Below are positions 3,908-60,604 of a stretch of 64,000 nucleotides of DNA, in pieces. Every line of letters begins with the position of its first letter. Positions within the stretch are counted from its first letter, which is position 1. The stretch lies in NCBI GenBank assembly GCA_019429005.1, contig JAHYJR010000002.1, positions 40,752 to 104,751 of the forward strand, written 5' to 3'. Under the pieces are notes generated by a model that worked only from the letters and a program-made list of their open reading frames with translations, was not told where the DNA came from and did not search any database. Both the position numbers and the translations under genes were made by a program. This DNA comes from Nanobdellati archaeon. GTDB lineage: Archaea > EX4484-52 > GLR71.

Positions 3908-5050
3908 CTAAAACAAAATAAATGCTAAAGACACGATACCTGCGACAGAAAAACCAAAAAATATCTTTAGTATTGCATCTGATACAAGAAGGGTACATGC
4001 TAAAAATATAACTTTCCCTAGATTCATTGAAAATTCTTTAAATACTATAAATTCATCAGGATTTTTCTTATTTGCTTCATCAAAACTTACAGCAACAAAA
4101 GGAAGATCAATTAATACAATAATCAGACCACCTAAAAAGCTTAATATAAAATAATCAATTGTACCTTTTGAGAAAATTCTGACAAACCATAATATACCGA
4201 AAAGTAAACCGCCATAACGTATAAGTTTAAATTTATCCATGTTATCCGATTTTTTACCAATATAAAATGTAAATGCAATTATTCCAAGACTTGTTATAGT
4301 ATGAGATAACCCCATTCCAATTGTGCTTCCTTGAAGTCCCCAATATATGAAAATTGGCCAAAATAAATAACTAACTAGCGATTTGATACCATGAAACATA
4401 AAATATATTAAATATTTAAAATTATTTTTAAATTTCAACATTTTTTTAAATGAAAAATTAACATGAGTTTTTGTATCTTTTGTGAAAAATAAAGGTATAA
4501 TTGATATACAAACAAATACTGTTGTTGTTATAAAAAGTATATTAAAACCAAAAACAAGTGCGATTAGACCTCCAATTGTAGGACCTGCAAGCGATGCAAT
4601 TTGTGGTATGGAAAACAGTTTACTTGTTTGTGTTCCTCTATGTAATTTATTACTATGTTTAGCAAATATTGAATTTATTGAATTCCAATATAATGATGCA
4701 CTACCTCCACCAATTAATGCAAGTAAATATATTGATATTGAATATGTTTCTATAAAATTTAAACCAAGTAAAAATGTAATAAGGAATGGCACTCTTAACA
4801 TAATTATATGTTTAAAACCAATCTTGTTTGCAAGTGTTGCAGCAAATGGTGATACAAAACCAAGAGTACCTTCAAAAACAATAAAGAACATAATAACTTC
4901 ATTAAAAGAATAACCTAGTTTAAGAAGATATATCGGTATAAATACAGATACGAGAGATAATGCAAAGCTTTGTATTGATAAGTTCATGTATACCTCCGAA
5001 AGCTCATTCTTAAGTATATGAATCTTATGAAAATGATAATGTCTATGCAT
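3908..5050 (-). CDS. MFS transporter
   Basis: About 12 hydrophobic segments; MFS motif-A-like ATLANKIGFK and GKKSDNMDK; AGPTIGGLIA. Confidence 0.85.
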   Translation of the reverse strand: MHRHYHFHKIHILKNELSEVYMNLSIQSFALSLVSVFIPIYLLKLGYSFNEVIMFFIVFEGTLGFVSPFAATLANKIGFKHIIMLRVPFLITFLLGLNFIETYSISIYLLALIGGGSASLYWNSINSIFAKHSNKLHRGTQTSKLFSIPQIASLAGPTIGGLIALVFGFNILFITTTVFVCISIIPLFFTKDTKTHVNFSFKKMLKFKNNFKYLIYFMFHGIKSLVSYLFWPIFIYWGLQGSTIGMGLSHTITSLGIIAFTFYIGKKSDNMDKFKLIRYGGLLFGILWFVRIFSKGTIDYFILSFLGGLIIVLIDLPFVAVSFDEANKKNPDEFIVFKEFSMNLGKVIFLACTLLVSDAILKIFFGFSVAGIVSLAFILF

Positions 5051-5143
5051 ATTATCAGTATATTTAATCTAGTTTATATATTTTCGTGATGTTCCCTATT
5101 TAAAACGATAATTTTATAACCCTTAAAATATATTAAATATTAT

Positions 5144-5671
5144 ATAAAACAAAGAGCGTTAATACTAGTAGATTTTGAAAATGAATGGATTAATAAAAAT
5201 TCAGATTATTTTGTTGGAGATATTTCAAAAGTTATTGAAAAGACAAATAAGCTTATTGATTTTTGTAGAAAAAACAATTATAAAATAATATTCATTGCAC
5301 ATATTGAAAAAGATTCAAATAATGTATTTGCAGAAAATTCTGAAAACATAAAAATTATTAACGAAATCAAAAGACACGATACCGATGTATTAATTAAAAA
5401 ATATAAAATTATTCCATTTTTTAAGACGTCTCTTGAAGAAGAACTTCAAAGTATTAATGAAATTATTGTTTGTGGGATCTTAACAAATTTATGTGTTAGA
5501 AGTCTTATTCAAGATGCATATGATAGAGATTTTGAAATAAAAGTAATTAAAGATTGTTGTGTCGCTTTTGATGACAAAACACAAGAATTTACATTTAAAG
5601 ATTTAAAGGATACAAGAGAAGAAATCGAATTCATAGATTTGAATGATTATATTGAATTCAATTTAAATTAG
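5144..5671 (+). CDS. Isochorismatase-family cysteine hydrolase (no canonical start; ATA start or start-lost)
   Basis: Uninterrupted 175-codon frame IKQRALILVDFENEW...IKKYKIIPFFKT...VCGILTNLCVRS...DAYDRDF...IKDCC with the Asp/Lys/Cys triad. Missed by the ORF track. Confidence 0.85.
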   Translation: MKQRALILVDFENEWINKNSDYFVGDISKVIEKTNKLIDFCRKNNYKIIFIAHIEKDSNNVFAENSENIKIINEIKRHDTDVLIKKYKIIPFFKTSLEEELQSINEIIVCGILTNLCVRSLIQDAYDRDFEIKVIKDCCVAFDDKTQEFTFKDLKDTREEIEFIDLNDYIEFNLN

Positions 5672-21589: not shown

Positions 21590-23287
21590 TCAATCAAAAT
21601 ACGCATTCAGAACATACTGCTCAACCATACGGTGCGTATTGAAGAAAGACGCATTAAAAGCAATAGCATGTTTCATTATATTCCGCCATTCTTTAGAATC
21701 ATTATAATATTTAAAAATTATATTTTCTAATTTCTTATACATATCATCAGAATCTTCATGATTTGTATTTTCTTTTGGATTTCTGCACCCAATAGACCAT
21801 CCTGTAACATTTTCAACATGACCTTCAAGCCACCAACCATCAAGAACACTTAAGCTAGGTACACCATTATGGCATGCTTTCATTCCAGACGTGCCTGATG
21901 CTTCAAGAGGACGAAGAGGTGTATTTAACCATAAATCTCCACCAGCAACTAGTATCTTTGCAGTCTCCATATTATAATTTTCAATATAAACAACTTTTAT
22001 TGAATCTTTAAGATCTGTTACTTTTAAAAATATGTTCTTTATTATATCCTTTCCTGGCTGATCATTAGGATGCGCTTTTCCAGCATAAATTATTTGAAAT
22101 GCACCAACATTTTTAGAAATATCAATCAATTTTTTAATATCTGTAAAAAGAAGATCTGCCCGTTTATATGTTGCACTCCTACGAGCAAAAACAATTGTAA
22201 ATACATCAGGATCCATACCAACATTAGTCTTTTGATTTACAAAATCAATAAGATCTTTTTTGGCATTTTCATGTGTTTCCCAAATCTTCTGTTTAGGTAT
22301 ATTTAATGCATATCGTAATGTAAATGGATCCTTTTGCCAACCAGGTATAAATCGATCATAAAGTTCTTTAAAATGTTTAGATGTCCATGTTGCTGAATGT
22401 ACACCATTTGTTATTGAATCAATCATATAACCAGGAAACATTTGTCTTGAAATTTCTCCATGCTTTTTTGCAACACCATTTATATGTTTACTATAATCAA
22501 GTGCAAGATAAGTCAAATTAAGTGCACCGTCATGAAATAAAGGTTTCATTTCATCAAAAGGTATAATTTCCCCAACTACAGATCTAACAAGATCTTCTGA
22601 AAACGTATCATGTCCAGCAGGCACAGGTGTATGTGTTGTAAAAACACATTTATTCCTCACAGCTTCTCGTAATTTATTTCCAGTATGTTTAACTCTTTTT
22701 TTCCTAAGCAATTCAAGTATAAGAAGACTTGAATGACCCTCATTCATATGATATTTTTTAATATTTGAATATCCTAATTTATCAAGAATACGAATACCGC
22801 CAATACCAAGTATAATCTCTTGACAAAGTCGATATTTATGATCGCCACCATAAAGATAATCTGTGATATGCCTATCATTCTCAGCATTTTCTTCTAAATC
22901 AGTATCAAGAAAAATTACAGGCACTTGAAATTTATTCACACCTGTTACTTTGTATTTCCATGCTGTTACAGCAACTTCTCTTCCTTCAATAGTAACATAA
23001 ATCTTTTTATTAAGTTTATTAAGCTGTTTTTCAGGTTCCCAAATCACGGGTTCTTCAGTTTGTATGCCCTGTTCATTGAGTTTTTGTAAAAAATAGCCTT
23101 TACGATACAATAATGTAATTGCGACAAGAGGTACATTCAAATCAGCACAACTTTTTATGCTATCTCCTGCAAGTATACCAAGACCGCCACTATATGTCGG
23201 TATTTTTTCATCTAAACCGATTTCCATACTAAAATATGCAATTTTTCGTTCTTTTTTAGTCAATTTGTTTTTAGAAAATCGGTCCAT
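21590..23287 (-). CDS. glgP: Alpha-glucan (glycogen/maltodextrin) phosphorylase, short form
   Basis: AYFSME, YSGGLGILAGD, HMNEGH, TTHTPVPAGHD, EASGTSGMK (PLP lysine). Confidence 0.95.
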   Translation of the reverse strand: MDRFSKNKLTKKERKIAYFSMEIGLDEKIPTYSGGLGILAGDSIKSCADLNVPLVAITLLYRKGYFLQKLNEQGIQTEEPVIWEPEKQLNKLNKKIYVTIEGREVAVTAWKYKVTGVNKFQVPVIFLDTDLEENAENDRHITDYLYGGDHKYRLCQEIILGIGGIRILDKLGYSNIKKYHMNEGHSSLLILELLRKKRVKHTGNKLREAVRNKCVFTTHTPVPAGHDTFSEDLVRSVVGEIIPFDEMKPLFHDGALNLTYLALDYSKHINGVAKKHGEISRQMFPGYMIDSITNGVHSATWTSKHFKELYDRFIPGWQKDPFTLRYALNIPKQKIWETHENAKKDLIDFVNQKTNVGMDPDVFTIVFARRSATYKRADLLFTDIKKLIDISKNVGAFQIIYAGKAHPNDQPGKDIIKNIFLKVTDLKDSIKVVYIENYNMETAKILVAGGDLWLNTPLRPLEASGTSGMKACHNGVPSLSVLDGWWLEGHVENVTGWSIGCRNPKENTNHEDSDDMYKKLENIIFKYYNDSKEWRNIMKHAIAFNASFFNTHRMVEQYVLNAYFD

Positions 23288-34784: not shown

Positions 34785-34982
34785 AAAATAATTTATAATA
34801 AAAATAATTTATAATAAAAATAATTTATAATAAAAATAATTATAATCAAAATAATTATAATAAAAATAATTTATAATAAAAATAATTATAATAAAAATAA
34901 TTATAATAAAAATAATTATAATAAAAATAATTATAATAAAAATAATTATAATAAAAATAATTATAATAAAAATAATTATAAC
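34785..34982. repeat. Tandem array of ~13 mixed 15/16-bp units AAAAATAAT(T)TATAAT
   Basis: Seen directly, between convergent uvrC and the ABC permease. Confidence 0.95.
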
Positions 34983-35019
34983 AAAAAAATATAATAAAAT
35001 AACAATCATTTCTCATAAA

Positions 35020-36258
35020 CTATTTACTTAAACTCTCAACAGGATTTAGATTTGCAGCTTGTCTTGCAGGGAAAATACCGGACACACTACCAATTACTGT
35101 TGAAAATACAATTACGGCAAGACTTAACATTATATCAAATTCAATATTCAGTATACCTGTTCCAACAGTCATTGCAGCTGCAAAACCAGCCATTTTTGCG
35201 ATACCGTAACCCACAATTGAACCTAAAACACCACCTGTAAAACCTAAAATACTAGATTCAATCAAAAAGATCAATAAAATATCATTATTTCTTGCACCAA
35301 TCGCTTTCATAATACCTATATCTTTTCTACGTTCAATTACTGAAGTATACATAGTATTCATTATACCAAGACCACCAACAAAAAGAGAGATACCAGCAAG
35401 ACCAATTAATATGACTTGCACAATATTCAATATAGTACCTAAACTATCCATCAATTCTTCAGTCGTTTGTATAGTAAAGTCTTCTTTACCTTCTTTAACA
35501 TCTCTATCTTTTCGCATAGCTTTCTTTATATCCTCAGCGACATCAGCAGGATTAAAATTATCTTTAACATCAACCATTATGATCATATAATCATCAGTCA
35601 TATTAAATACTTTTTTTGCAGTTTCAAGAGGTATAAATATATTTTGATCATCCATATTATTTCCAAGAGTCTCAAGAGAACCTATAACTTTTAAATCATA
35701 ACCATTTATTTCAATTTTACTTCCAATAGTGACTTCTTTACCAAAAAATTGTCCATGACGAACTCTTGTTCCAATAAGTGCATGATATGTATCAGTTGAT
35801 CTTGCATCACGACCATCTTCAATCACAAAATTACTCATCCTTTGAATAATCTTATATGATTCATCAATAGCAAATCCACTTATAAATGTGTTTTTTGATA
35901 TACCTTTAAATTTGACTTGTGCCTCTTTTGTTATCATGCCACCTGCCATATCAACACCCTTTACAGATTCAATCAGATCAATATCGTCATCTGTAAGTTT
36001 TCCTGTTGACATAGCACCAGGCATACCCATAGAACCCGCAGAACCCATAGCACTTCCAGGCATAATCATAAGTATATCAGTTCCAATCTCTTCAAATTGT
36101 TGCATAATTGCAGATTCAAGACCATTACCCATACTGATAAGAGAAACAACTGCAGCAATGCCTATAACTATACCTATCATCGTAAGATAAGATCTTGTCT
36201 GTCTTTCTCTTAAATTACGTAAAACGTAAAGGACATAATCATACAACATAAGCATCAT
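35020..36258 (-). CDS. MacB/FtsX-family ABC transporter permease
   Basis: RSYLTMIGIVIGIAAVV, GGLGIMNTMYTSVIERRKDIGIMKAIGA, PARQAANLNPVESL. Confidence 0.93.
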   Translation of the reverse strand: MMLMLYDYVLYVLRNLRERQTRSYLTMIGIVIGIAAVVSLISMGNGLESAIMQQFEEIGTDILMIMPGSAMGSAGSMGMPGAMSTGKLTDDDIDLIESVKGVDMAGGMITKEAQVKFKGISKNTFISGFAIDESYKIIQRMSNFVIEDGRDARSTDTYHALIGTRVRHGQFFGKEVTIGSKIEINGYDLKVIGSLETLGNNMDDQNIFIPLETAKKVFNMTDDYMIIMVDVKDNFNPADVAEDIKKAMRKDRDVKEGKEDFTIQTTEELMDSLGTILNIVQVILIGLAGISLFVGGLGIMNTMYTSVIERRKDIGIMKAIGARNNDILLIFLIESSILGFTGGVLGSIVGYGIAKMAGFAAAMTVGTGILNIEFDIMLSLAVIVFSTVIGSVSGIFPARQAANLNPVESLSK

Positions 36259-36716
36259 TTGTTTTGTATTAATATATAATTAATCATATCTTTGACTTTA
36301 ACTGCAGACGATTCACATTCAACACTTAATTTATCATGAAAACCTATTCTTTTAGGTTTTATGCCAATAAATATTATTTCAGCTTCAGAATTATTTTCAA
36401 GATATTTTATAAAAAGTTCTAATGGCAATTTATGCGTTGAAAGAGAAATATCACGTATTTCATTTCGTTTTATAATTTTAATTTCGCCAGGCAAACCTTT
36501 AAAATCAGCAGCATCAACAAGTATAATCTTTTTAGGTTCAAAAGAAATAATTTTTCCAACAAAATTCTCAGGAGCTAAACCACATTCAATTAAGTGTGCA
36601 TTAACATTATCATATCTTAAAAGATCTAATACATACGGCCCGATACTATCATCACCACGCATAGTATTTCCAATACCACAAATTACAACATTTTTTGAAA
36701 TATTGTTTAAGACCAT
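36255..36716 (-). CDS. hycI: Hydrogenase maturation endopeptidase (HycI type)
   Basis: GIGNTMRGDDSIG, APEN, LVDAAD, STHKLPL. Confidence 0.9.
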   Translation of the reverse strand: MVLNNISKNVVICGIGNTMRGDDSIGPYVLDLLRYDNVNAHLIECGLAPENFVGKIISFEPKKIILVDAADFKGLPGEIKIIKRNEIRDISLSTHKLPLELFIKYLENNSEAEIIFIGIKPKRIGFHDKLSVECESSAVKVKDMINYILIQNK

Positions 36717-36782: not shown

Positions 36783-37100
36783 ATGCATGATGTTAAAGCT
36801 GTGAGATATGTTATTGAAGAACTTAAACAAATCAAAACCTATAAAGCCAAAATCATACTTGGAGAACTTGTTACAACAAAAGAATCATTTAAATCAATGT
36901 TTGATGAGATGGTTAAAAACACACAACTCGAAAAAATTAAACTTGATATAATTTCAATCAAACCAAGAATAAAATGTACTTGTGGTTATGAAGGAGGTAT
37001 AACAATACCAAAAGGTGCACACCTGCATTATGTAAGATGCCCTGATTGTAATAAAATTGCAGATATTATAGAAGGTAATGAGATTAAAGTTATAATCTAA
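36783..37100 (+). CDS. hypA: Hydrogenase nickel metallochaperone HypA (divergent)
   Basis: N-terminal MHD, LGEL, CxC...CPxC, GNEI; locus context. Confidence 0.82.
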   Translation: MHDVKAVRYVIEELKQIKTYKAKIILGELVTTKESFKSMFDEMVKNTQLEKIKLDIISIKPRIKCTCGYEGGITIPKGAHLHYVRCPDCNKIADIIEGNEIKVII

Positions 37101-37169: not shown

Positions 37170-39524
37170 ATGTCCAATTTATATCTGTTTAAAATCAAAG
37201 GCACAGTTCAAGGTGTCGGATTCAGACCATACATCTATAACTGTGCAATAAAAAATAACTTAAAAGGATATATCAGAAACACAACAGATGGTGTTGAAAT
37301 ATTAATTGATAACAAAGATAAAATGATATCAATACTTAAAAACATCCCAAAAGCTGCTAACATAGAATCAATCAATATTCAAAAACAAGAGAACATAATA
37401 TTTGATAACAAAAAAGTTGATAACAAAACAGTTGATAACAAAACAACCAATAACAAAAAAGGTAATACAAATAAAAATGATAAGGATACAACTGTTTCAG
37501 ATTCATTCAAGATTATAAACAGCGAAACAAAAACAGATAAGATTTTATTATCAATACCTCCCGATTTAGATCTATGTAACGATTGTCTTAATGATCTAAA
37601 AAATAAAGATAATAAACGTTTTAATTATTTTTTTACAACTTGTACAAATTGCGGTCCACGATATAGCATAGTACACAAATTACCTTATGACCGCAATAAT
37701 ACTGCTATGACTTCATTTATTATGTGCCCTTCATGTAATACAGAATATAAAAATCCACAAAACAGACGATTTCATGCTCAAACAATAGCTTGTCCCTCAT
37801 GTGGTCCTGAAATAAATCTGTATTATAAAAATAAAAAAATAATATGCACAAACCCAATAAAAGAATGTGCTAAACTAATAACAGAAGGAAATATTATTGC
37901 AATAAAAGGTGTTGGTGGATTCCATCTTGCATGCAAAACAGACATAAAAATAATCAATAATTTAAGAACATTGACAAGACGAAAACATAAACCCTTTGCA
38001 GTTATGGTAAAAGACCTAAATATGGCTCAAGAGTTCACTAATATAAACAATCACGAAAAAAAAGCATTAGAAAGTATCGAAAAACAGATAGTTATCTTAA
38101 AAAAAAAAGATAAAACAATATTAAAACACGTTTCTGAATTAGACACAATTGGTATTATGTTACCATATACCGCATTACATCACCTTATATTTGATCATAT
38201 TGATTTTCCAATAATACTAACCAGTTCAAATATGCCCGGAGACCCTATTACATCAGATAAAAAATATCAAGATCCATTTACAGATTATGTTCTTGACAAT
38301 ACAAAAGAAATTATAAACACCGTTGATGATTCAATTGTAAAAATAATCTCAGATAAAACATTATTGCTTAGACGTTCAAGAGGATATGTACCTAAGACAA
38401 TTGATATTTCATTTATGACAAATAAGATTAATTGTAAAAATAAAAATTGTAAAAATTATAATTGTAAAAATAATTATACAAATCAAAACAATAAAATAAA
38501 TAATAAAGATCAATGCATTCTTGCAGTTGGTGTCGAAGACAATACAACATTTTGTATCTATAAAGACGGAAAAGCTATAATGTCACCATATTTTGGAAAC
38601 ACAAGAAATCTAAAAACATATGAGTATTTTAAAGAATCAATCACGAAATTTCTCAAATTCGTTGATGCTGTACCAGATAAAATAATTTGCGATTTTAATC
38701 CAACATATATGACATCAATTTATGCTAAAGAATTAGGATCTAAACTAAATATTCCCGTTTTAAATGTTCAACATCATCTAGCTCATATGTATTCTGCAGC
38801 AATCGAACAAGGGTTTAAATACAATACAAATTTCGTAGGTATCATTTGTGATGGCTCTGGTCTTGGACTTGATGGAAACATCTGGGGTGGTGAAGTATTC
38901 TATAAAGGTCAAAAAGTTGGAAGTCTCGAAGAACAATACCTTCTTGGTGGCTCAAGTGCTATTACAAATCCAAAAAAAATGTTATATTCAATACTCCGGA
39001 AATTTATGGACGATAAACAAATAACTGAATTTGGTTTCAAAAACAAGAACCTAAAAATATTTTCAAAACAATATAACACAAAAATAAATTCATCAATAAC
39101 TACAAGTTGTGGACGTATTCTTGATGCTGCATCTGCACTTCTTGATGTCTGTGATTATAGAGATTATGAAGGACGTCCAGCAATGCTTCTTGAATCCATA
39201 TCTACGAAACCATATGATTTTGAACCGATAATAAAAACATATCAGAACAAACAAATTCTTATGACAACACCACTATTTGAATACTTAATAAAAAATATTA
39301 AAAAAGATAAATCTCGTCTTGCAGCAACCGTCCAATTATATCTTGCAAAAGGATTATATACAATCGCAAAAAGTTTTAATAAAAACATTATATTTAGTGG
39401 TGGTTGTGCTTATAACAAGATAATGACCGAATTCATGATTAAAAATTCTGTTAATATTGCTCAAAAATCACCTTGTGGTGACGGAGGTATCAGTTTAGGA
39501 CAGATTGCATCTCAATTCTATTAA
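37170..39524 (+). CDS. hypF: Carbamoyltransferase HypF
   Basis: GTVQGVGFRP, CTNCGPRY, RRFHAQTIACPSCGP, KGVGGFHLAC, QHHLAH, GDGGISLGQ. Confidence 0.96.
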   Translation: MSNLYLFKIKGTVQGVGFRPYIYNCAIKNNLKGYIRNTTDGVEILIDNKDKMISILKNIPKAANIESINIQKQENIIFDNKKVDNKTVDNKTTNNKKGNTNKNDKDTTVSDSFKIINSETKTDKILLSIPPDLDLCNDCLNDLKNKDNKRFNYFFTTCTNCGPRYSIVHKLPYDRNNTAMTSFIMCPSCNTEYKNPQNRRFHAQTIACPSCGPEINLYYKNKKIICTNPIKECAKLITEGNIIAIKGVGGFHLACKTDIKIINNLRTLTRRKHKPFAVMVKDLNMAQEFTNINNHEKKALESIEKQIVILKKKDKTILKHVSELDTIGIMLPYTALHHLIFDHIDFPIILTSSNMPGDPITSDKKYQDPFTDYVLDNTKEIINTVDDSIVKIISDKTLLLRRSRGYVPKTIDISFMTNKINCKNKNCKNYNCKNNYTNQNNKINNKDQCILAVGVEDNTTFCIYKDGKAIMSPYFGNTRNLKTYEYFKESITKFLKFVDAVPDKIICDFNPTYMTSIYAKELGSKLNIPVLNVQHHLAHMYSAAIEQGFKYNTNFVGIICDGSGLGLDGNIWGGEVFYKGQKVGSLEEQYLLGGSSAITNPKKMLYSILRKFMDDKQITEFGFKNKNLKIFSKQYNTKINSSITTSCGRILDAASALLDVCDYRDYEGRPAMLLESISTKPYDFEPIIKTYQNKQILMTTPLFEYLIKNIKKDKSRLAATVQLYLAKGLYTIAKSFNKNIIFSGGCAYNKIMTEFMIKNSVNIAQKSPCGDGGISLGQIASQFY
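37402..37446. repeat. In-frame 15-bp repeat x3 in hypF (DNKKV/DNKTV/DNKTT)
   Basis: TTGATAACAAAA(A/C)A(G/A) units. Confidence 0.85.
38430..38474. repeat. In-frame 15-bp repeat x3 in hypF (NCKNK/NCKNY/NCKNN)
   Basis: AATTGTAAAAATnnn units. Confidence 0.85.
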
Positions 39525-39607: not shown

Positions 39608-39775
39608 ATGTTAAACAGTTCAAGTGCATGGGGTATAGGATTTATACTTGCCGGATTATACATAGGAATATCAATAAAAGATATTAAAAATAGTATTGTA
39701 CTGTTATTGGTGGGTATTAGTTTAATTATTTTCAAAAATCGTGAAAATATTATTGAAGTGGTGAAAAAGAAATGA
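39608..39775 (+). CDS. Small two-TM membrane protein (55 aa)
   Basis: MLNSSSAWGIGFILAGLYIG...; ATGA overlap with the YbjQ-like gene; below the ORF-track cutoff. Confidence 0.7.
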   Translation: MLNSSSAWGIGFILAGLYIGISIKDIKNSIVLLLVGISLIIFKNRENIIEVVKKK

Positions 39776-40092
39776 TTATTGTAACAACAGATTTTATTGA
39801 AGGGTATAAAATAACAAAAACATTAGGTGTTGTAGTTGGAAATACCGTTAGAGCTAAAAATATAGGTAAAGATATTATGGCAGGCCTTAAAAATATTGTT
39901 GGTGGCGAACTTAATGAATATACATCGATGCTTTCAGATGCAAGAGATGAATCCATGAACCGTATGATAAATAAAGCAACAGATCTTGATGCAGATGCAA
40001 TCATCAATATCAGATTTATGACTTCAGCAATAACTGGTGGTGCAGCAGAACTTATGAGTTATGGTACTGCTGTAAAGATTACAAAAAAATAG
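39772..40092 (+). CDS. YbjQ / UPF0145 family protein
   Basis: MIIVTTDFIEG, GLKNIVGGEL..Y, ADAIINIRF, YGTAV. Confidence 0.93.
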   Translation: MIIVTTDFIEGYKITKTLGVVVGNTVRAKNIGKDIMAGLKNIVGGELNEYTSMLSDARDESMNRMINKATDLDADAIINIRFMTSAITGGAAELMSYGTAVKITKK

Positions 40093-41348: not shown

Positions 41349-42335
41349 TCAACATATCCGCGGTATAATCCGACCTCGAGGATTTGAAAGTATTCTTTCA
41401 CCAAATTTTGTCTTAAGAACAACACCCTTACCCACACGAACAGAACCAATCACATCTGCATTAACATCAAATTCCCGTAATAAATTAACAACCTCTCGTG
41501 CATCATCTTTCTTAGCAACACAAACAAATCGACCTTCACATGCCATCTCATACGGACTTATACCAAGAACATCACAAAGAGATAAGACCTCTCGTTTAAC
41601 AGGAATCTTTGACTCATCAATATACAACTGAACTGAATCCTTTTCAGCCATTTCATTCAAAATTGCTGCAATACCACCCCTTGTTGGATCCTTTGCAACC
41701 TTAATCAGATGTTTAATCTTAAGAACTTCATCTACAATAGGTTTAGAATCTGTTTTGAGATTTGTATCGAAATCCAACCGCACTGCCATTAAACTTGCAC
41801 CATGATCCCCGATAGACCCAGACACGATAATTACATCGCCATCACATATAGATTCATCAAGAACCGTATCTGATATACCTACAGCAGATGTATTTATAAT
41901 AATTTTATCTATTTTCCCACATTCCATAACCTTCGTATCACCTGTAACAACTGGAATATTTGTAGCTTTTGAAACATCAGCAATAGACTTAATTATCTTA
42001 TCAAGATCGGATTTAGAAAAACCTTCTTCTATCACAAAACTTACAGAAATGCCAAGAGGTTTTGCACCCATAACAGCAATATCATTGATAGTACCACACA
42101 TTGCAAGATGACCAATATCCCTTCCATTGAAAAAAATAGGATCAACTACAAAAGAATCTGATGTAAAAAATATATATTTATCTCCAATAAGAATCGTAGC
42201 TGAATCATTATCAGAATTATTCCAATTACCACTACCACCAAAAGTATCTCTAAAAGTAGTAATAAGATTCTGCATTTCTTCTCCACCACTTCCCTCACTC
42301 AATGAGATCTTGTCATCTTTAATAAAAGAAACCAT
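41349..42335 (-). CDS. hypE: Hydrogenase maturation carbamoyl dehydratase HypE
   Basis: GSGG, DSFVVDP, GTINDIA, TGDTKV, KDPTRGG, C-terminal PRIC; start moved to ATG 42335. Confidence 0.96.
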   Translation of the reverse strand: MVSFIKDDKISLSEGSGGEEMQNLITTFRDTFGGSGNWNNSDNDSATILIGDKYIFFTSDSFVVDPIFFNGRDIGHLAMCGTINDIAVMGAKPLGISVSFVIEEGFSKSDLDKIIKSIADVSKATNIPVVTGDTKVMECGKIDKIIINTSAVGISDTVLDESICDGDVIIVSGSIGDHGASLMAVRLDFDTNLKTDSKPIVDEVLKIKHLIKVAKDPTRGGIAAILNEMAEKDSVQLYIDESKIPVKREVLSLCDVLGISPYEMACEGRFVCVAKKDDAREVVNLLREFDVNADVIGSVRVGKGVVLKTKFGERILSNPRGRIIPRIC

Positions 42336-42339
42336 AAAA

Positions 42340-43350
42340 TCACGAATACCTATAAGCAATTGAACATGTACCCTCATCTGAAACCATGCATGCCCCTTTA
42401 GGTGCTGATGATGTACAGACATTTCCAAAAAGCTTACAATCTTTAGGTTCAATAAGACCTTTCAAGATTTCAGAACATCTGCAAGCACTATTATCTTTTT
42501 CACTTTTAACATTTTTTAATATCTCTTGATACTTAATCTTTGCATTGCATTCATCATCTTTAGGTTCAAGCCCTGAATTTGGTATAACACCAATACCTCG
42601 CCATTCAGCGTCTGAAACCTTCATAGTTTTATTTATCAAATCATTTGCTTTAATATTACCATCACAAGTCACAACACTATCATAACAATTAACAACTGAC
42701 TTTTGCCCAGACTTTATCATTTTCAAGATCTCATATACAGATTCAAATATCTGTTTAGGTGAAAATCCGCTGATAGCTTGAGGTACATTTAATTCGTCCC
42801 AAACATTATAACCAATAATTGTTGACACATGCCCAGGATCAATAAAACCATCAATCTTAATTTCATCTTTAAGAAGTGCTTTCATTGGTGGTATCATCAA
42901 TTTATGCGTTGAGTACACACAAATATTTTTCTCTAAAAGATATGCAGTCATAGGTACTGTAGTCTCAAAACCTATACCAAAAAAGACAATATCTTTATGT
43001 TCTTTAGCTAAATCCAAAACATCAGTTGTGGATAAGACCTCAAATATTTTAGTACCATTTACTTTCACATCCTCAAGACTCATATTAGAACCTGGAACAC
43101 GAAACATATCACCATAAGTTGCAATCGGTACACCGCTTAAAGCAAGCGCAACAACCGAATCAATATCTTTCTGACTTGTGACACACACGGGACATCCAGG
43201 ACCCGATATTAATTTTATGTTTTTTGGAAGTAACGACCTAATACCATAACGCATTATAACATTTGTATGCCCACCACAAACTTCCATTATAGAAACATCG
43301 GGCATACCTTTTGCAATATTATGTATATCTCTAAGTAAAGACCCCACCAT
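42340..43350 (-). CDS. hypD: Hydrogenase formation protein HypD
   Basis: MEVCGGH, GPGCPVC, GIGFETT, PGHVS, C-terminal Fe-S cysteines with GACMVSDEGTC. Confidence 0.96.
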   Translation of the reverse strand: MVGSLLRDIHNIAKGMPDVSIMEVCGGHTNVIMRYGIRSLLPKNIKLISGPGCPVCVTSQKDIDSVVALALSGVPIATYGDMFRVPGSNMSLEDVKVNGTKIFEVLSTTDVLDLAKEHKDIVFFGIGFETTVPMTAYLLEKNICVYSTHKLMIPPMKALLKDEIKIDGFIDPGHVSTIIGYNVWDELNVPQAISGFSPKQIFESVYEILKMIKSGQKSVVNCYDSVVTCDGNIKANDLINKTMKVSDAEWRGIGVIPNSGLEPKDDECNAKIKYQEILKNVKSEKDNSACRCSEILKGLIEPKDCKLFGNVCTSSAPKGACMVSDEGTCSIAYRYS

Positions 43351-43351
43351 A

Positions 43352-43558
43352 TCAAAACCCATCTCTAAATAAATCATTATTTCTATCAAAATCCTCTTTT
43401 AAAACTTTCTGTATAGCAAACCCTGCATGAACTAAAACATAATCATCAATAGAAACATCAACAAAAGAAATATTAGCATTTTTAGTTATGCCACCATAAT
43501 CAATTATCGCATCCTTACCTTCAATCTTTATTATTTTACCAATAGCCGCAAGACACAA
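43352..43558 (-). CDS. hypC: Hydrogenase chaperone HypC (TTG start)
   Basis: MCLA, DYVLVHAGFAI; AGGTGA SD. Confidence 0.95.
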   Translation of the reverse strand: MCLAAIGKIIKIEGKDAIIDYGGITKNANISFVDVSIDDYVLVHAGFAIQKVLKEDFDRNNDLFRDGF

Positions 43559-43603
43559 AATTAAGTCACCTGATTATACATCTGATCGTCCGATTATAAA
43601 TTA

Positions 43604-43930
43604 TTAAAACCACATTAAAATAAAACCTATAATAATCAAACCAAATAAAACCCATAACAAATACATTGAAAGCTTACCGCTATGTGCTTGCTTGATTATA
43701 TCTAATTTGAAATAATTTATTATTGTCTTATAAAAAGAATGCTCATTGACCCTATATTGGTCAGGATCAGCCTTATTACCACAAACATACATCTCTCTTG
43801 ACGCTTTATCACGAAGAGAAGGTTCTCTTTCAATAATCCAATATATAAAAATTGAAAAAATTATAAATAACAGACTTGCTGTATAAAAACCATTTCCAAA
43901 AAAAGATGAAGAAACTATATTTAGACTCAT
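43604..43930 (-). CDS. MbhI-like membrane-bound hydrogenase subunit
   Basis: N-terminal TM, YVCGN, lateral helix, HSGKLSMYLLW C-terminal TM; follows the MbhH-like gene. Confidence 0.7.
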   Translation of the reverse strand: MSLNIVSSSFFGNGFYTASLLFIIFSIFIYWIIEREPSLRDKASREMYVCGNKADPDQYRVNEHSFYKTIINYFKLDIIKQAHSGKLSMYLLWVLFGLIIIGFILMWF

Positions 43931-45390
43931 GACAAGACCCCCATTAAATATAAATCGCGACTTAAACTTAAATCAATTATGTTTTGTGATAATTGTAGAC
44001 CCAAATCAGGGAAAAAACCTAAAACCAACATAATAACTAACAAAACGGCTAACATAACCTTATGTGACAGCGGTATAAAAAGTGGTGTTTTCTCATAATC
44101 ACGCTTATCATTCAAAAATATAAGATGAAATGCCTTAAAACTATATGCTAAAGTGATTACTGACACGATAAAAGATACAAAAGCTGCAAATGGATATAGG
44201 CTCAAACTCACAATATACAACATCCATTTACTTGCAAAACCATTTAAAAAGGGTATACCTGTAAGAGATAGAAGAGCGACACCAAATGTTACAGTAAATA
44301 ATTTATTCTGTCTGGATATATAACCCATCTTTGACATATCACTTGTCTTAAAATGTTGCGATATAATATAAGCTGATATGAAAAGTACAGCATCAATAAT
44401 AACAGTATTTATAAGATGATATATAGCAGAAACAAAACCAATATTTTCCATCATACCAAGACCAAAACCAAAAAGTATGTATCCACTCTGGCTTATTGCA
44501 GAATAGGCAATCATTTTTTTAAGATCTTTCTGTTGAAGAGCCATAACAGCTCCAACAAACATGGTTAAAAGTGCAATATAAATCAACATTTTTGAAAAAT
44601 AAAATGCACCAAAAACAGTATATACAAATCTAAAAATAGCATACAATGAAACTGCTGTTGACGTTGCGGAAATTGCAAGACCAAATGACGCCGGATTTGA
44701 TTTGACAACATCAGGTTTCCAGGCATGGAATGGAACAATTGCACCTTTCATAAAAAGACCTGTAAGTATTAATGCAAGTGGTATATTATTTCCAAATCCA
44801 GGTACAATTTTCATCATAAGGTCTGCCATATTTAACGTGCCATACATCCCATAAAGCATAGCAATACCAATTAAAAATATTGATGATGCAAAACTCCCAA
44901 TAATGATATATTTAATTGAACTTTCAAAAGCAGGTTTATCACGATTAAATGATGATAATATATATGCAGACATACTTGAGATTTCTAAAAACACGAAAAA
45001 ATTAAAAATATCGCCTGTAATTGTCATACCCACAAGACCAACATTATAAAACATAAAAAGCGTATAAAACTGATATCTCCTTTTTTTGATTTCGTGTTTA
45101 GATATGAATGCAACTATTAGACCTATTAAAAAAATTAAAGACAATATCAAAAAACCAATACCATCAACAGCAACAGTTATACCAAATGGTGCCTGCCACC
45201 CACTTAATTGATAGATTATAATACCTTCATTAAGTAATTTTGGAAGTGACAATAATGTAAATATAAGTGATGATAATAACGCAATAATAGTAACATTAAA
45301 ATTTAATTTTTTGTATTTATGCCCAAGTGTAACTATTATAAACGCACTACATAAAAGCATAGGAACAATATATGAAATATAATTATACAC
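43927..45390 (-). CDS. MbhH/MrpD-like proton-translocating subunit
   Basis: GWQAPFGI, TGDIFNFFVFLE, GTLNMAD, KGAIVPFHAW, DLKKMIAYS, PFLNGFASKW. Confidence 0.93.
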   Translation of the reverse strand: MYNYISYIVPMLLCSAFIIVTLGHKYKKLNFNVTIIALLSSLIFTLLSLPKLLNEGIIIYQLSGWQAPFGITVAVDGIGFLILSLIFLIGLIVAFISKHEIKKRRYQFYTLFMFYNVGLVGMTITGDIFNFFVFLEISSMSAYILSSFNRDKPAFESSIKYIIIGSFASSIFLIGIAMLYGMYGTLNMADLMMKIVPGFGNNIPLALILTGLFMKGAIVPFHAWKPDVVKSNPASFGLAISATSTAVSLYAIFRFVYTVFGAFYFSKMLIYIALLTMFVGAVMALQQKDLKKMIAYSAISQSGYILFGFGLGMMENIGFVSAIYHLINTVIIDAVLFISAYIISQHFKTSDMSKMGYISRQNKLFTVTFGVALLSLTGIPFLNGFASKWMLYIVSLSLYPFAAFVSFIVSVITLAYSFKAFHLIFLNDKRDYEKTPLFIPLSHKVMLAVLLVIMLVLGFFPDLGLQLSQNIIDLSLSRDLYLMGVLS

Positions 45391-45393
45391 GTT

Positions 45394-45753
45394 TTAACCC
45401 TCTAATTTATTTATTTTATTTGTATCTATTGTCTTAAATTTATCATATACAAGTGTGGCTGTTATCAAAGCAAGTGCTGTAACACTTAAATCTATCACGA
45501 TTGATGTCAGTACAAGAGCTTGCGGCAAAGGATCAACAGAACTAATAACAAAATAATTTGAATTCAATGCTGTAATAATTGGTGCGATACCATTCTCTTT
45601 AAATCCAATTATTATTAGAAATAGATGTATTCCCATCGTAAATATGTTCAAACCAATAATTTTTTTTATTAGATTCTCTTTAGAAACCACAGCATAAATT
45701 CCAAGTGCCATAAATATGACAGCAGCATAATAAGATATTACAATCATTTCCAA
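45394..45753 (-). CDS. MbhG/MrpC-like subunit
   Basis: NLIKKIIGL, DPLPQALVLTSIVI. Confidence 0.92.
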   Translation of the reverse strand: MEMIVISYYAAVIFMALGIYAVVSKENLIKKIIGLNIFTMGIHLFLIIIGFKENGIAPIITALNSNYFVISSVDPLPQALVLTSIVIDLSVTALALITATLVYDKFKTIDTNKINKLEG

Positions 45754-46169
45754 TCATCCTCACGAGGTGGATACATTGTCATTATAAATGAATATACAAT
45801 TATAAGTATACCAAGAAGTACCATAAAACCACCAATTATATTTAAAAAGAATGTGAAACCGCCACTCCAAATCTCAAAAAAGTCCTGTGTTTTCAATATA
45901 TTATTTCTAATGATATATCCCTCAATAACAATCAAAAGAAGAAAAATCGCAAAACTACCCTTAAGATACATAACATTTTTTTTAGAAATCCTTGCATCAA
46001 TACTTGTCTCATCAGCACCTATAGCAAGAAGAAGAAATGCAGTTCCAAGAATAACACCTGCAGGAAACCCACCACCTGGTGTAATATGACCATTGACAGA
46101 AATATAAATACCAAATAATAAGATAACGGGAAATAATACTCTTGTTGCAGTCCTTATAATCGCATCCAT
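45744..46169 (-). CDS. MbhF/MrpB-like subunit
   Basis: LFGIYISVNGHITPGGGF. Confidence 0.92.
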   Translation of the reverse strand: MDAIIRTATRVLFPVILLFGIYISVNGHITPGGGFPAGVILGTAFLLLAIGADETSIDARISKKNVMYLKGSFAIFLLLIVIEGYIIRNNILKTQDFFEIWSGGFTFFLNIIGGFMVLLGILIIVYSFIMTMYPPREDDWK

Positions 46170-46184
46170 ATATTACACATCTTA

Positions 46185-46532
46185 TTATATTTTTGTTATT
46201 TTTGTCAAAAGTTTAGATTTAGTTTTTTCTCCTTTTTTCTTATCTCTTCTATCAATACTTTTCCTAAGTGCTAAAGATAAAAAATATACACCTGTTGCTG
46301 CTATAAAAAGCACAGATTCTTCACCCAAAGTATCATAACCCCTAAAATCCCAAACAATAGAATTTACAATATTTGCAGACCCTGTCTCTTCAAGACCATT
46401 ATTAAGATAATATTGTGAAGCTGCTCTTGAATCAAAATCTGTTTGATATATCTTGCCCGATACTGTAATAACCATAATCACAAAGATAAATAAAAATATT
46501 AAAGTTGTGATTTGTATCTGATTAATTTTCAT
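46185..46532 (-). CDS. MbhE-like subunit
   Basis: ETGSANIVNSIVWDFRGYDTLGE. Confidence 0.92.
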   Translation of the reverse strand: MKINQIQITTLIFLFIFVIMVITVSGKIYQTDFDSRAASQYYLNNGLEETGSANIVNSIVWDFRGYDTLGEESVLFIAATGVYFLSLALRKSIDRRDKKKGEKTKSKLLTKITKI

Positions 46533-46762
46533 TTTTCAAACCTCTCAGTTTTTTTAATTGCAACTACAAAAATCATTGTAACCACACCACCTATAACGGC
46601 AGCTTGAGTTATTGCTATATCGGGCGCTTTTAACATAAAAAATACAATTGCAATAATAAGATTTGTACTACCAAGCAAAATCACAGATTGCAACAGATCT
46701 TTCATCTCAATGGCTACAAGAGCCATGACAATCGCTGCAATCAGTAATGCTTCATAAAACAT
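46529..46762 (-). CDS. MbhD-like subunit (DUF4040)
   Basis: KDLLQSVI, LKAPDIAITQA. Confidence 0.9.
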   Translation of the reverse strand: MFYEALLIAAIVMALVAIEMKDLLQSVILLGSTNLIIAIVFFMLKAPDIAITQAAVIGGVVTMIFVVAIKKTERFEK

Positions 46763-46771
46763 AATAATCAC

Positions 46772-47107
46772 TCACTTTACTTTTCGGTCCTTCATATTTA
46801 TATGTACTAATTCGTCTTTTACAACCAATGGCTTTATACCATTATCATAAGCAGACATAACAATTGCATGACTTGTAATGGGTGACGTTATCACGATAAA
46901 ACTTGCAATTATTAATATCTTTATTGAAAATTGAAGATTAAAAGGATTAAATGCAATAGCTATAAGCGAAAGAACAACACCACCAATAGTTATCATTGTT
47001 GCAGCATGAATTCTTGTATAGATATCAGGAAATCTAAAAAGCCCGAGTGCTCCAATTATCATAGATATTGTGGACAATATAAATAAGATATTAATTATAG
47101 TAATCAT
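46772..47107 (-). CDS. MbhC/MrpG-like subunit
   Basis: GALGLFRFPDIYTRIHAAT, SPITSHAI. Confidence 0.92.
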   Translation of the reverse strand: MITIINILFILSTISMIIGALGLFRFPDIYTRIHAATMITIGGVVLSLIAIAFNPFNLQFSIKILIIASFIVITSPITSHAIVMSAYDNGIKPLVVKDELVHINMKDRKVK

Positions 47108-47338
47108 TTAATTCACCCACCTAGCTATTGAAAGAACCCCTGTAAATGATAACAATGCGATAACCATAGCCACATCAAGATAAAATGAACTTTGTATTGC
47201 GATAGCATACACAACCATCATAAGAATTATGATATTACCAAAAATATCAATTGACATTATTCTGTCTGCAAATGTAGGTCCAAGTACAGCCCTTATAAGA
47301 CATAAAAGCCCAGTTATAAAAAATAGGTATTCAATCAT
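47108..47338 (-). CDS. MbhB/MrpF-like subunit
   Basis: GPTFADRIMSID, YLDVAMVIALLSF. Confidence 0.92.
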   Translation of the reverse strand: MIEYLFFITGLLCLIRAVLGPTFADRIMSIDIFGNIIILMMVVYAIAIQSSFYLDVAMVIALLSFTGVLSIARWVN

Positions 47339-47841
47339 CTCAAAAACCTCTTTCCATATTTTTCAAATAATAAACCAACTTTAACATTATCATTTTTATC
47401 AAAATTAAGACAATGTACAAACAGATTGTCATCACATTTGACAGTAATAGTCCCTGGAGTTAATGTAATTGAATTTGAGAACATGCTTTTTCCAAATTCA
47501 GATTTAAAAGACGTCTTGACTTTAACAATTGCAGGATGAATTTTACCTGTAATAATCATTTTTGCAACATTAAGATGTGATATAATTTCCGTATAAATTA
47601 TAATGCAAATATAGGCAATCATATGTACCCAATTTATCGGATTAAACATCATATAAATTGAACGATAAGTGATAAAATGCATAGATATAACCGCAACAAG
47701 CATTGATGCCAAGAAACCTATAACTAGATTTCCTTGAATAGATACTGATGTAAGCAATTCATCAGAGGGTATTGTTAGTATAATCCATATCTCAAAAAGC
47801 AATAATGTCATAGGGATATATACCTTAAGCAATCTTTTCAT
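47335..47841 (-). CDS. MbhA/MrpE-like subunit
   Basis: IHPAIV, NSITLTPGT, LFVH. Confidence 0.92.
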   Translation of the reverse strand: MKRLLKVYIPMTLLLFEIWIILTIPSDELLTSVSIQGNLVIGFLASMLVAVISMHFITYRSIYMMFNPINWVHMIAYICIIIYTEIISHLNVAKMIITGKIHPAIVKVKTSFKSEFGKSMFSNSITLTPGTITVKCDDNLFVHCLNFDKNDNVKVGLLFEKYGKRFLR

Positions 47842-50111: not shown

Positions 50112-50951
50112 ATGGAAGGTTATACCAACATTATTGATGAACTCAGACAGTTTGGTTTCACACAATATGAATCCAAAGCATATATCACCTTAATAAGTAA
50201 AGGTGTTCTTTCAGGACCAGATATATCAAAATTTAGCAAAATACCTAAAAGCAAAATATATGACGTTGTTAATAATCTTTTAACAAAAAGAATGATTGAA
50301 GAATTTCCAGGAACACCACGAAAATTTAAAGCACGAGCAATTGATAATGTTTTCAACGAAATACTTACAAACAAAAAAGAAAAAATTGACAATTTAGAAA
50401 AAACCGCTGAAACATTAAAGACACGAATAAAAGGAATGTTAAAATTTGCAGAAAAAACATATATTGAAAAAAATTCAGTAATCTGGACTGTAGATGGACG
50501 AAAAGCATTTCACGAAAAATTTGCTGAAATGGGTGACAAAAGCACAAAAGAAGTTTTTGTCATAACACCTTATTTCTCAAGAAATCCACTAATAGAAAGA
50601 AGCATAGAACATGCAAAAACAAGAGGAGTAACATTTCAGGGAATCACATCTATGAACGATGAAAATAAAGATCGTATACGATTTTATACAAACTTATTTG
50701 ATAATATATCGGTATTTAATGGTACTATACCTATGACAATCATAATTATAGACGATAAAGAATGTATATATAGGATGGAATATAAATCAAACGGACAGAA
50801 TAATTATATAGGCGTACATTCAACAAATCCAGGCCTTATAAATGCATTTAAACAATACTGGGATGGATTAATAAAAGACTCAAATTTGATTGAAGATACA
50901 GATTTAAAAATAGATCAAACATTTCTTTCTGAAAATAAAATAGGATTCTAA
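50112..50951 (+). CDS. TrmB-family transcriptional regulator
   Basis: GFTQYESKAYITL, SKIPKSKIYDV, GTPRKF; PLD-like effector domain (IIIDDKE). Confidence 0.92.
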   Translation: MEGYTNIIDELRQFGFTQYESKAYITLISKGVLSGPDISKFSKIPKSKIYDVVNNLLTKRMIEEFPGTPRKFKARAIDNVFNEILTNKKEKIDNLEKTAETLKTRIKGMLKFAEKTYIEKNSVIWTVDGRKAFHEKFAEMGDKSTKEVFVITPYFSRNPLIERSIEHAKTRGVTFQGITSMNDENKDRIRFYTNLFDNISVFNGTIPMTIIIIDDKECIYRMEYKSNGQNNYIGVHSTNPGLINAFKQYWDGLIKDSNLIEDTDLKIDQTFLSENKIGF

Positions 50952-59794: not shown

Positions 59795-60604
59795 ATGATT
59801 AGCGAAGAAACATTAGATAATCTCAAGGCAATTGGCCTTAACTTATATGAACGAAAAATTTATGCTGCACTTATCGCAAAAGGTGTAGGTTCTGCAGGTT
59901 CACTTGCTGAAATTGCTCAAGTTCCAAGATCCCGTGCATATGATGTTCTTGAAAGTCTTGCTGAAAAAGGATTTATTGTAGTTCAACACACAAAACCAAT
60001 AAAATATGTCGCTATTAAACCATCAACAGCAATGGATAACACAAAATCGATTCTTAAAAAAAACTTTACTACAAATGTTAAACGAATTGATACTTTTTCA
60101 GATAGTAAAGCATTAAATGAACTTGATCATCTTTATACTAACGGTGTTTCTTTAGTAAACCCTGCTGACTTAACAGGCACATTCAAAGGAAGTTATTCAA
60201 TTGAACTTCAACAGAATGCTATGTTCAAAAAAGCAACATCAACTATTGATATAATGACATCTGAACATGGTATTAAAAATCTTATAGAAGCACATTCAAG
60301 TATACTTCAAAAAGCAAAAAACAGAGGTATCAACATACGAATTGCAGCACCAATAACTGAAACAAATAAAAAATATACAGATATGCTTAAAGATATCGCA
60401 ACTGTAAAAGACCTTAATGATATTAAAAATAATATCCCTATAGGTAAAATGATAATTGTTGATAATAAACAAGCTATACTTGGACTTACAAATGAGAAAG
60501 ATACACATCCAACACAACAAGTATCACTATGGACTGCATCAGATCATTTTACAAGCAATTTCGCACATAATACATTCAATATAATATGGAAAAATCTAGA
60601 ATAA
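59795..60604 (+). CDS. TrmB-family transcriptional regulator
   Basis: GLNLYERKIYAAL, QVPRSRAYDVLESLAEKGF, KPIKY. Confidence 0.93.
   Translation: MISEETLDNLKAIGLNLYERKIYAALIAKGVGSAGSLAEIAQVPRSRAYDVLESLAEKGFIVVQHTKPIKYVAIKPSTAMDNTKSILKKNFTTNVKRIDTFSDSKALNELDHLYTNGVSLVNPADLTGTFKGSYSIELQQNAMFKKATSTIDIMTSEHGIKNLIEAHSSILQKAKNRGINIRIAAPITETNKKYTDMLKDIATVKDLNDIKNNIPIGKMIIVDNKQAILGLTNEKDTHPTQQVSLWTASDHFTSNFAHNTFNIIWKNLE

Follow-up and report, generated by a model that had tools for sequence, protein, structure and literature searches.

Membrane arm and maturation genes in the window

The stretch of 64,000 nucleotides analyzed here (the window, part of contig JAHYJR010000002.1) belongs to a genome, G000, of 1.08 Mb on 15 contigs, 93.6% complete. 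It contains a gene cluster resembling the membrane arm of the membrane-bound [NiFe] hydrogenase (MBH) of Pyrococcus furiosus, followed by genes for hydrogenase maturation (Table 1). Nine open reading frames (ORFs) on the minus strand, from 47841 to 43604, are separated by intergenic gaps of only -10 to +15 bp and follow the order mbhA to mbhI, as had been noticed from the sequence alone. The products of the first eight, MbhA to MbhH, exceeded the cutoffs of the respective Pfam families (MNHE, MrpF, MnhG, MbhD, MbhE, MnhB, Oxidored_q2, and Proton_antipo_M). The ninth, with 108 amino acids (aa), had the NCBIfam model MbhI as its sole family match, and this match was weak (E value of 4e-6, 27 bits versus a cutoff of 95), but the position of mbhI is conserved in the loci of relatives. 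MbhH is the product of the one antiporter-like gene in the whole genome.

Downstream of mbhI, after 45 bp, hypC is followed by hypD and hypE, and hypA, hypF, and hycI are situated within 5 kb; all of them scored above the family cutoffs, so that HypA, HypC, HypD, HypE, and HypF of the canonical Hyp set are all present. The sequence-only reading of the window had listed the same genes but had described hypCDE as fused to the membrane arm, while they are merely neighbors. Translation of hypD and hypE probably starts at the ATG codons at 43350 and 42335 rather than at the TTG codons upstream. In none of the relatives examined was mbhI directly followed by hypCDE.

Table 1. Hydrogenase-related genes in the window
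Feature	Position	Strand	Evidence
mbhA (MrpE-like), 168 aa	47335..47841	-	PF01899, E 6e-26
mbhB (MrpF-like), 76 aa	47108..47338	-	PF04066; top PDB match 6cfw_B
mbhC (MrpG-like), 111 aa	46772..47107	-	PF03334
mbhD, 80 aa	46529..46771	-	PF13244; aligned to 6cfw_D
mbhE, 115 aa	46185..46532	-	PF20501
mbhF (MrpB-like), 141 aa	45744..46169	-	PF04039
mbhG (MrpC/NuoK-like), 119 aa	45394..45753	-	PF00420; alignments
mbhH (single antiporter-like subunit), 487 aa	43927..45390	-	PF00361; top PDB match 6cfw_H, E 7e-62
mbhI (predicted linker subunit between the two arms), 108 aa	43604..43930	-	NCBIfam MbhI below cutoff; position in relatives
hypC	43352..43558	-	PF01455
hypD, probable start ATG 43350	42340..43350	-	PF01924, E 2e-120
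hypE, probable start ATG 42335	41349..42335	-	TIGR02124 above cutoff
hypF, 784 aa, two low-complexity Asn/Lys inserts	37170..39524	+	five HypF Pfam domains
hypA, short form, 105 aa, H80-x-H82 before second cysteine pair	36783..37100	+	PF01155, 39 bits
hycI (maturation protease)	36255..36716	-	TIGR00142 above cutoff

The catalytic half of the enzyme

No gene for a large, small, or NuoH-like subunit had been noticed in the window, and genome-wide searches with PF00346, PF01058, PF00374, and PF00146 indeed matched one locus each, all of them on another contig, C1; a motif scan likewise gave no ferredoxin-type motif in the window. The locus on C1 is a mbhJ-K-L-M-N cluster in standard order on the minus strand (G000:C1:2231-5531, with mbhJ at 5079-5531 and mbhN at 2231-2569), located inside the contig 111 bp behind a MoxR/vWA gene cluster. 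According to the sequence-only reading, a standard cluster elsewhere in the genome would reduce the finding to an operon split, and this is the situation encountered. The puzzle of an orphan membrane arm is resolved because the complete mbhJ-N cluster is present on C1.

The large subunit MbhL contains the four NiFe ligands C76/C79 and C366/C369 in the motifs RxCGxC and DPCxxC, followed by R372 and a tail of 26 residues, and its E29 aligned to E21 of P. furiosus. This tail and the HycI protease answer the question of a cleavable C terminus. The top PDB match of MbhL was 6cfw_L from the Pyrococcus MBH (E value of 2e-88), with HycE of formate hydrogenlyase ranking behind, and the host MbhL was 56 to 58% identical to MbhL proteins of family relatives. 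The products of mbhJ, mbhK, mbhM, and mbhN are the small subunit with one FeS cluster, the NuoC-like, the NuoH-like, and the 2[4Fe-4S] subunit, respectively, with intact FeS ligands.

The genes for the two arms reside on separate contigs, A to I on C4 and J to N on C1. An assembly break or misbinning of C1 was considered and rejected. Both junctions are contig internal, the window contains no N, and the composition of C1 fits the genome: the tetranucleotide correlation of C1 with the rest of the genome was 0.81, compared to 0.84 and 0.85 for the two other contigs of less than 40 kb and 0.37 to 0.63 for six loci from other genomes.

Assignment of the enzyme and its proposed working

As judged from sequence comparison, the window very probably encodes the membrane arm of an MBH, a group 4 [NiFe] hydrogenase with 14 subunits and linked to Mrp, together with most of the proteins for its maturation; the genes of the enzyme would have been separated when an ancestral mbhA-N operon broke. 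A NuoD-like large subunit with four cysteines plus Arg, the partner subunits, and a tail together with HycI characterize a group 4 [NiFe] hydrogenase; the Mrp module MbhA to MbhG, a single MbhH, and MbhI characterize the Pyrococcus type of MBH. A single mbhA-N operon is lacking, which is not strictly required, given the split enzyme described in PMC9585477. An enzyme without a NiFe center similar to MBS, Fpo, or complex I was dismissed because all four MbhL cysteines and only one antiporter-like subunit are present, and so was a stand-alone Mrp antiporter, which would possess MrpA plus MrpD and no MbhI.

Compared to the P. furiosus MBH (MbhA to MbhN, PDB 6CFW), all 14 subunits are found in the same relative order within each piece, with a single antiporter-like subunit, NiFe motifs that end in Arg and are followed by the tail, HycI, a context of GAPOR and POR (the ferredoxin oxidoreductases for glyceraldehyde-3-phosphate and pyruvate), and a Na+-type ATP synthase. 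The differences are two operons instead of one, the failure to find either of the two HypB types, a short HypA, and the replacement of charged residues described below.

Following the P. furiosus paradigm, GAPOR and POR would reduce ferredoxin, MbhN and MbhJ would relay the electrons to the NiFe site of MbhL for the conversion of protons to H2, MbhM and MbhI would couple H2 formation to MbhH, MbhA to MbhG would convert this coupling into a Na+ gradient, and the Na+-type A/V ATP synthase would turn the gradient into ATP. Before that, HypC, HypD, HypE, and HypF may build the Fe center, the short HypA may deliver Ni without a recognizable HypB, and HycI may cut off the 26-residue tail of MbhL.

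A multimer structure prediction, suggested along with the sequence-only reading, argued weakly for the contact between the arms. The MbhM-MbhI complex had a score of 0.32 compared to 0.00 for the best of three controls, with a contact agreement between runs of at least 73% and a predicted local distance difference test (pLDDT) value of the partner of at least 51. In the benchmark, 116 of the 157 solved pairs attained the mark, as did 2 of the 215 mismatched pairs; 18 of these solved pairs and both mismatches did so at a score of 0.60 or under, the range in which MbhM-MbhI is located. The prediction shows likeness only because a like complex is already solved.

Energy metabolism

The pathways needed on both sides of such an enzyme are recognizable. 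A GAPOR-like gene has GAPOR as its best family match, albeit below the equivalog cutoff, and the genome also contains a four-gene POR cluster, small ferredoxins, a member of the ADP-forming acetyl-CoA ligase family, and a full operon for an A/V ATP synthase, which had been named as an A-type enzyme to be looked for. Residues Q32, E61, T62, Q63, and Y66 of its c subunit aligned with the positions of the sodium site in Enterococcus NtpK. By analogy, GAPOR, POR, ferredoxins, and a Na+-type A/V ATP synthase would complete a Pyrococcus-like circuit. The glucan phosphorylase noticed in the window is an alpha-glucan phosphorylase (21590-23287) above the TIGR02094 cutoff. With mbhJ-N on C1 and these partner pathways, the initial proposal of a split ion-pumping group 4 hydrogenase for fermentative H2 evolution in a DPANN archaeon is supported.

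The gene just in front of the ATP synthase operon (G000:C11:40699-40866) encodes a ferredoxin-like protein of 55 aa, a candidate for the electron donor to MbhN. Two genes for TrmB-family regulators are located near the locus (window 50112-50951 and 59795-60604); no TrmB-type palindrome was found upstream of the mbh, POR, GAPOR, and ATPase genes.

Breaks of the mbh operon in relatives

The phylum is represented in the collection by 42 genomes of one order, 41 of which were searched. A NiFe-type MbhL was found in 23 of these 41 genomes, and all 23 also possessed MbhD and HypD. Gene order was compared in 40 stretches fetched around mbhH and mbhL. The break between mbhI and mbhJ occurred in all 8 MBH genomes of the host's family, one of them judged from the mbhJ side only, and is common to seven genomes of the sister genus. 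In five genomes of genus g8, with a sixth inconclusive, the break was situated between mbhJ and mbhK instead: mbhJ remained with the membrane arm and mbhK to mbhN moved away. This indicates that the break points do not track functional modules. Genera g12 and g5 as well as three Hadarchaeota loci had intact mbhA-N operons. In G025, G028, G011, and G023, the operon was continuous, with a UMP-kinase-like gene between mbhJ and mbhK. An additional insertion of several kilobases separates these two genes in G020, and the contigs of genus g13 end inside the mbh operon. The mbh operon is labile and was broken more than once in this order, at points that differ between genera, which argues against interpreting a split operon as ancestral or as a module with a function of its own.

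The MbhH and MbhL trees (17 rows) contained the same genus clades. Shared ancestry alone gives such a result, which means co-inheritance and not co-evolution. The large MbhL tree was a quick tree without Thermococcales rows. Five named records, three rows without both motifs, and the seven rows of genus g3, in which Lys replaces the Arg of the first motif, had been omitted from it, and two long-branch outsiders were placed inside the MbhL clade of the order; for these reasons, no donor is claimed.

A split MBH has been described for Thermoprofundales subgroup E and called unique among the genomes of January 2021 (PMC9585477). The membrane and catalytic genes are in separate clusters there, too, but mbhM accompanies the membrane arm (A-I,M and JKLN), in contrast to A-I and J-N in the host and A-J and K-N in some of its relatives. 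The Hadarchaeota operons (L082, L083, and L086) share the A-N order, MbhL proteins that are 49 to 51% identical, adjoining hycI, hypC, and hypE, Gln in MbhD, an MbhH without the lysine of transmembrane helix 8 (TM8), and the lack of a clear HypB in all three genomes. They differ by the intact operon, by an MbhH that retains the K354 equivalent and is devoid of the new lysine described below, and by a longer HypA where it is present.

Genes inserted into the operons of relatives were considered as extra conserved subunits, but these are UMP-kinase-like (PF00696) and HD-domain proteins, read as passengers. The UMP-kinase-like gene between mbhJ and mbhK occurs in three genera of two families (L170:10508-11185, L171, L166, L168, L191, and L192) and is apparently an old passenger. 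Genus g3 has an HD-domain gene between mbhK and mbhL instead, and the genomes of genus g5 encode MbhK and MbhL as one fusion protein of about 540 aa (L191:8633-10270 and L192:8496-10118), as in HycE-type large subunits. Locus L193 (G012:C90) is an mbh-like A-N operon with a single antiporter-like subunit and a large subunit from which the tail and two NiFe cysteines out of four are missing; HypD was not found in G012, and the operon may encode an MBS-like or other non-hydrogenase derivative. G020 possesses two mbhH regions, L168 (C12) and L167 (C16). The region linked to mbhJ-N has unlike F and G genes and several unrelated genes, including one for an ABC transporter, between mbhJ and mbhK. 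Part of it looks identical to L185 in G032, which may be a binning error.

Altered pump residues and alternative explanations

Residue numbers and roles of the P. furiosus proteins were taken from PMC8679088, where K256, H350, and K354 of MbhH, D37 of MbhG, and E69 of MbhD are proposed as central. Of the residues assigned to the ion path on the basis of the P. furiosus structure, the host retains E136, K215, H325, and K388 of MbhH (P. furiosus E143, K225, H346, and K409), D31 and D55 of MbhB (D35 and D59), and H43 of MbhG (H41); the MbhE motif is retained as well. A new lysine, K225, is present in MbhH at the position of P. furiosus L235 and a new D88 in MbhG.

Several observations weigh against the assignment to a coupled MBH of the P. 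furiosus type. MbhH contains A246, T329, and D333 instead of K256, H350, and K354, MbhG T39 instead of D37, and MbhD Q56 instead of E69, so that none of these five residues is conserved and coupling may differ from that in P. furiosus. For MbhG and MbhD, the match to the sulfur reductase MBS (6u8y) was marginally better than that to MBH. Neither HypB type was found in G000, despite its completeness, with the positive controls detected in G001, G018, and G023. Finally, the arms of the Thermoprofundales subgroup E enzyme are reported to work independently, as concluded from functional assays (PMC9585477).

The last point leads to the main alternative, in which both halves are partly or wholly independent, with MbhA to MbhI as a stand-alone Mrp-type Na+/H+ antiporter and MbhJ to MbhN as a membrane-anchored, H2-evolving electron sink. 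The separate operons in all MBH genomes of the host's family and the alteration of several coupling residues fit this explanation, as do the Thermoprofundales precedent and the correspondence of J-N, with its MbhM anchor, to the five-subunit module proposed there as ancestral (PMC9585477). It is nevertheless improbable: MbhI, a subunit without a function in Mrp, persists with a conserved core, both halves occur together in 23 of 23 genomes, the break in genus g8 ignores functional modules, and the maturation genes adjoin the membrane arm in this genome.

Still less probable is an assembled complex with a decayed or uncoupled pump that produces H2 only for the disposal of electrons. The loss of the MbhH K256/H350/K354 and MbhD E69 equivalents would agree with decay; in Mrp, Glu687 of MrpA, the equivalent of MbhD E69, is described as strictly conserved and important (PMC9568556). 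The substitutions are not random, however, but fixed across the order. The TM8 lysine of MbhH was lost and the new lysine plus an acid were present in all 20 rows, which represent 19 MBH genomes of this order, and the new acid at position 88 of MbhG was found in 20 of 21 rows, with G012 and the second, unlike copy of G020 left out. Gln occupied the MbhD E69 position in 20 of the order's 21 rows, the exception being G012, the enzyme without NiFe ligands, and also in Hadarchaeota. Moreover, the aspartates of MbhB, the motif of MbhE, and the pair of E136 and K215 in MbhH are kept. Among distant homologs of MbhH, 129 of 150 of which could be aligned, 94 had only the TM8 lysine, 17 only the new lysine, 1 both, and 17 neither. 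The new lysine without the TM8 lysine in 17 proteins compared to both in only 1 suggests a swap, and relocated charges that compensate for each other would be the simplest reading. The pattern is not confined to the order because it is also present in proteins labeled Aenigmarchaeota and Neomoorella. Exchanges of conserved charges that occurred naturally in MbhH, MbhG, and MbhD put the present models of coupling in MBH, Mrp, and complex I to the test.

The suggestion that the membrane arm docks a different redox module, with the C1 cluster as a separate or misbinned enzyme, had only the absence of catalytic genes from the window in its favor and is largely refuted, since the large, small, and NuoH-like subunits are single copy and all in the C1 mbh cluster, the composition of C1 and the MbhL identity to family relatives fit, and the I/J split recurs in the sister genus.

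Possible maturation without HypB

Two papers on maturation treat HypA and HypB as a pair (PMC12134894 and PMC13202556). The GTPase type of HypB (TIGR00073) scored above the cutoff in only 1 of the 41 genomes, G001, in which an MBH was not found; two MBH genomes contained GTPases that scored below it, encoded in a different gene cassette. The true ATPase HypB of the Thermococcus type (3vx3, E value of 8e-99) was present solely in G018 and G023, beside a long HypA. These hypA-hypB pairs (L305:5082-6238 and L304:6157-7310) are situated away from the hydrogenase genes, are additional to the short HypA, and were probably acquired by transfer. Neither HypB type was found in 21 of the 23 MBH genomes, five of which are 91 to 96% complete, although HypD was present in all 23. 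Three Hadarchaeota genomes (completeness unstated) were also without a clear HypB. MinD paralogs were rejected as a hidden HypB: none of the four in G000 reached an E value of 1e-15 versus the true ATPase-type HypB, and the one that was scanned had archaeal MinD as its best match. A motif scan, which is a weak test, revealed no SlyD-like protein.

Most of the MBH genomes encode a short HypA with a His-x-His motif. Among 21 short sequences that were aligned, the second cysteine pair is preceded by His-x-His in 20, and the insert of the long type is absent from all 21. The model of the short HypA had the HypA fold (pLDDT of 87) and matched HypA structures in a fold search, whereas a plain sequence search versus the PDB did not retrieve a HypA. 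A profile search yielded 31 close members before a sharp drop, and the few named ones were from DPANN. The fold is shared with HypA of Thermococcus kodakarensis, which acts with an ATPase-type HypB (PDB 3VX3 and 5AUN), but the insert of the long Thermococcus-type HypA of G018 and G023, about 16 residues in length, is missing from the short HypA, which possesses His-x-His instead and has no partner ATPase that could be found. The histidine pair may bind nickel.

A joint claim goes further: the order, perhaps along with Hadarchaeota, might mature [NiFe] enzymes without any HypB, using a high-affinity nickel site of the HypA His-x-His motif and the N-terminal Met-His without a nucleotide-driven partner, and might possess a rewired MBH pump in which the lysine chain, said to disfavor Na+, would have changed into a neutral-acidic axis, possibly for direct Na+ transport. 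As drawn from sequences, this claim is tentative and rather doubtful. G014 has an ordinary-looking HypA yet no HypB, no HypA was found in G032, and the three Hadarchaeota genomes are without a clear HypB as well, all of which argues against a simple story. The loss of HypB may also reflect habitat or host supply and not a new mechanism because high nickel bypasses hypB mutants (PMC12134894). If the claim is true, a Hyp set of five proteins, HypB not among them, would make it simpler to produce hydrogenases in other hosts and would show how HypA selects nickel on its own.

Host lineage and published context

The closest named MbhL records were 54 to 57% identical and mostly labeled "Ca. Nanohalarchaeota." The release factor aRF1 was 51 to 53% identical to that of two genomes with this label and 41 to 43% to those of one Altiarchaeota and one SpSt-1190 genome; the host proteome is not acidic. 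Most likely, the host is a DPANN archaeon of EX4484-52 (Terrarchaeota), which is non-halophilic and forms the sister group of Nanohaloarchaeota (PMC13195033 and its preprint).

Energy conservation by such an enzyme in a minimal DPANN lineage, put forward as the novelty of the locus, is already in print. The MBH physiology of "Ca. Lutivulcanarchaeum fermentans" from the phylum EX4484-52, likely that of the host, was published in 2026 and comprises an MBH/Mrp-like module, ferredoxin oxidation, H2, an ion gradient, an A/V ATP synthase, GAPOR, POR, and glycogen metabolism; the section on this physiology does not include gene order, a split, the absence of HypB, or residue changes (PMC13503563). 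Group 4 enzymes are also reported for three Terrarchaeota metagenome-assembled genomes (PMC13195033 and its preprint) and for Aenigmarchaeota (PMC8407114), while the available part of PMC8470020 gives no hydrogenase for the EX4484-52 lineage. Variable operon breaks, the absence of HypB, and relocated pump charges were not found in print by literature searches, which did not cover subscription journals. The locus is real and the enzyme ordinary, with these three as the remaining variant features.

Other observations

The Asn/Lys inserts of HypF are absent from hypF of relatives (about 729 aa). A YbjQ-family "putative heavy-metal-binding" gene right after hypF (window 39772-40092, plus strand) was not beside hyp genes in the loci of relatives examined. 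A gene for an MFS transporter (window 3908-5050, minus strand) encodes 5 His in the first 11 residues and is patchy in relatives; it was rejected as a nickel importer, being present in 14 of 41 genomes and not tracking MBH. A short tandem-repeat tract follows uvrC (window 34809-35009). Very long ORFs of 2,800 aa and more, one of them far longer, on contigs C8, C10, C13, and C11 of G000 probably encode surface proteins. Among the Bathyarchaeia records L089 to L133, many named loci combine mbhK-L with a gene for a small subunit of 300 aa but show no genes for membrane subunits in the DNA that was fetched, and possibly represent a soluble group 4 module.

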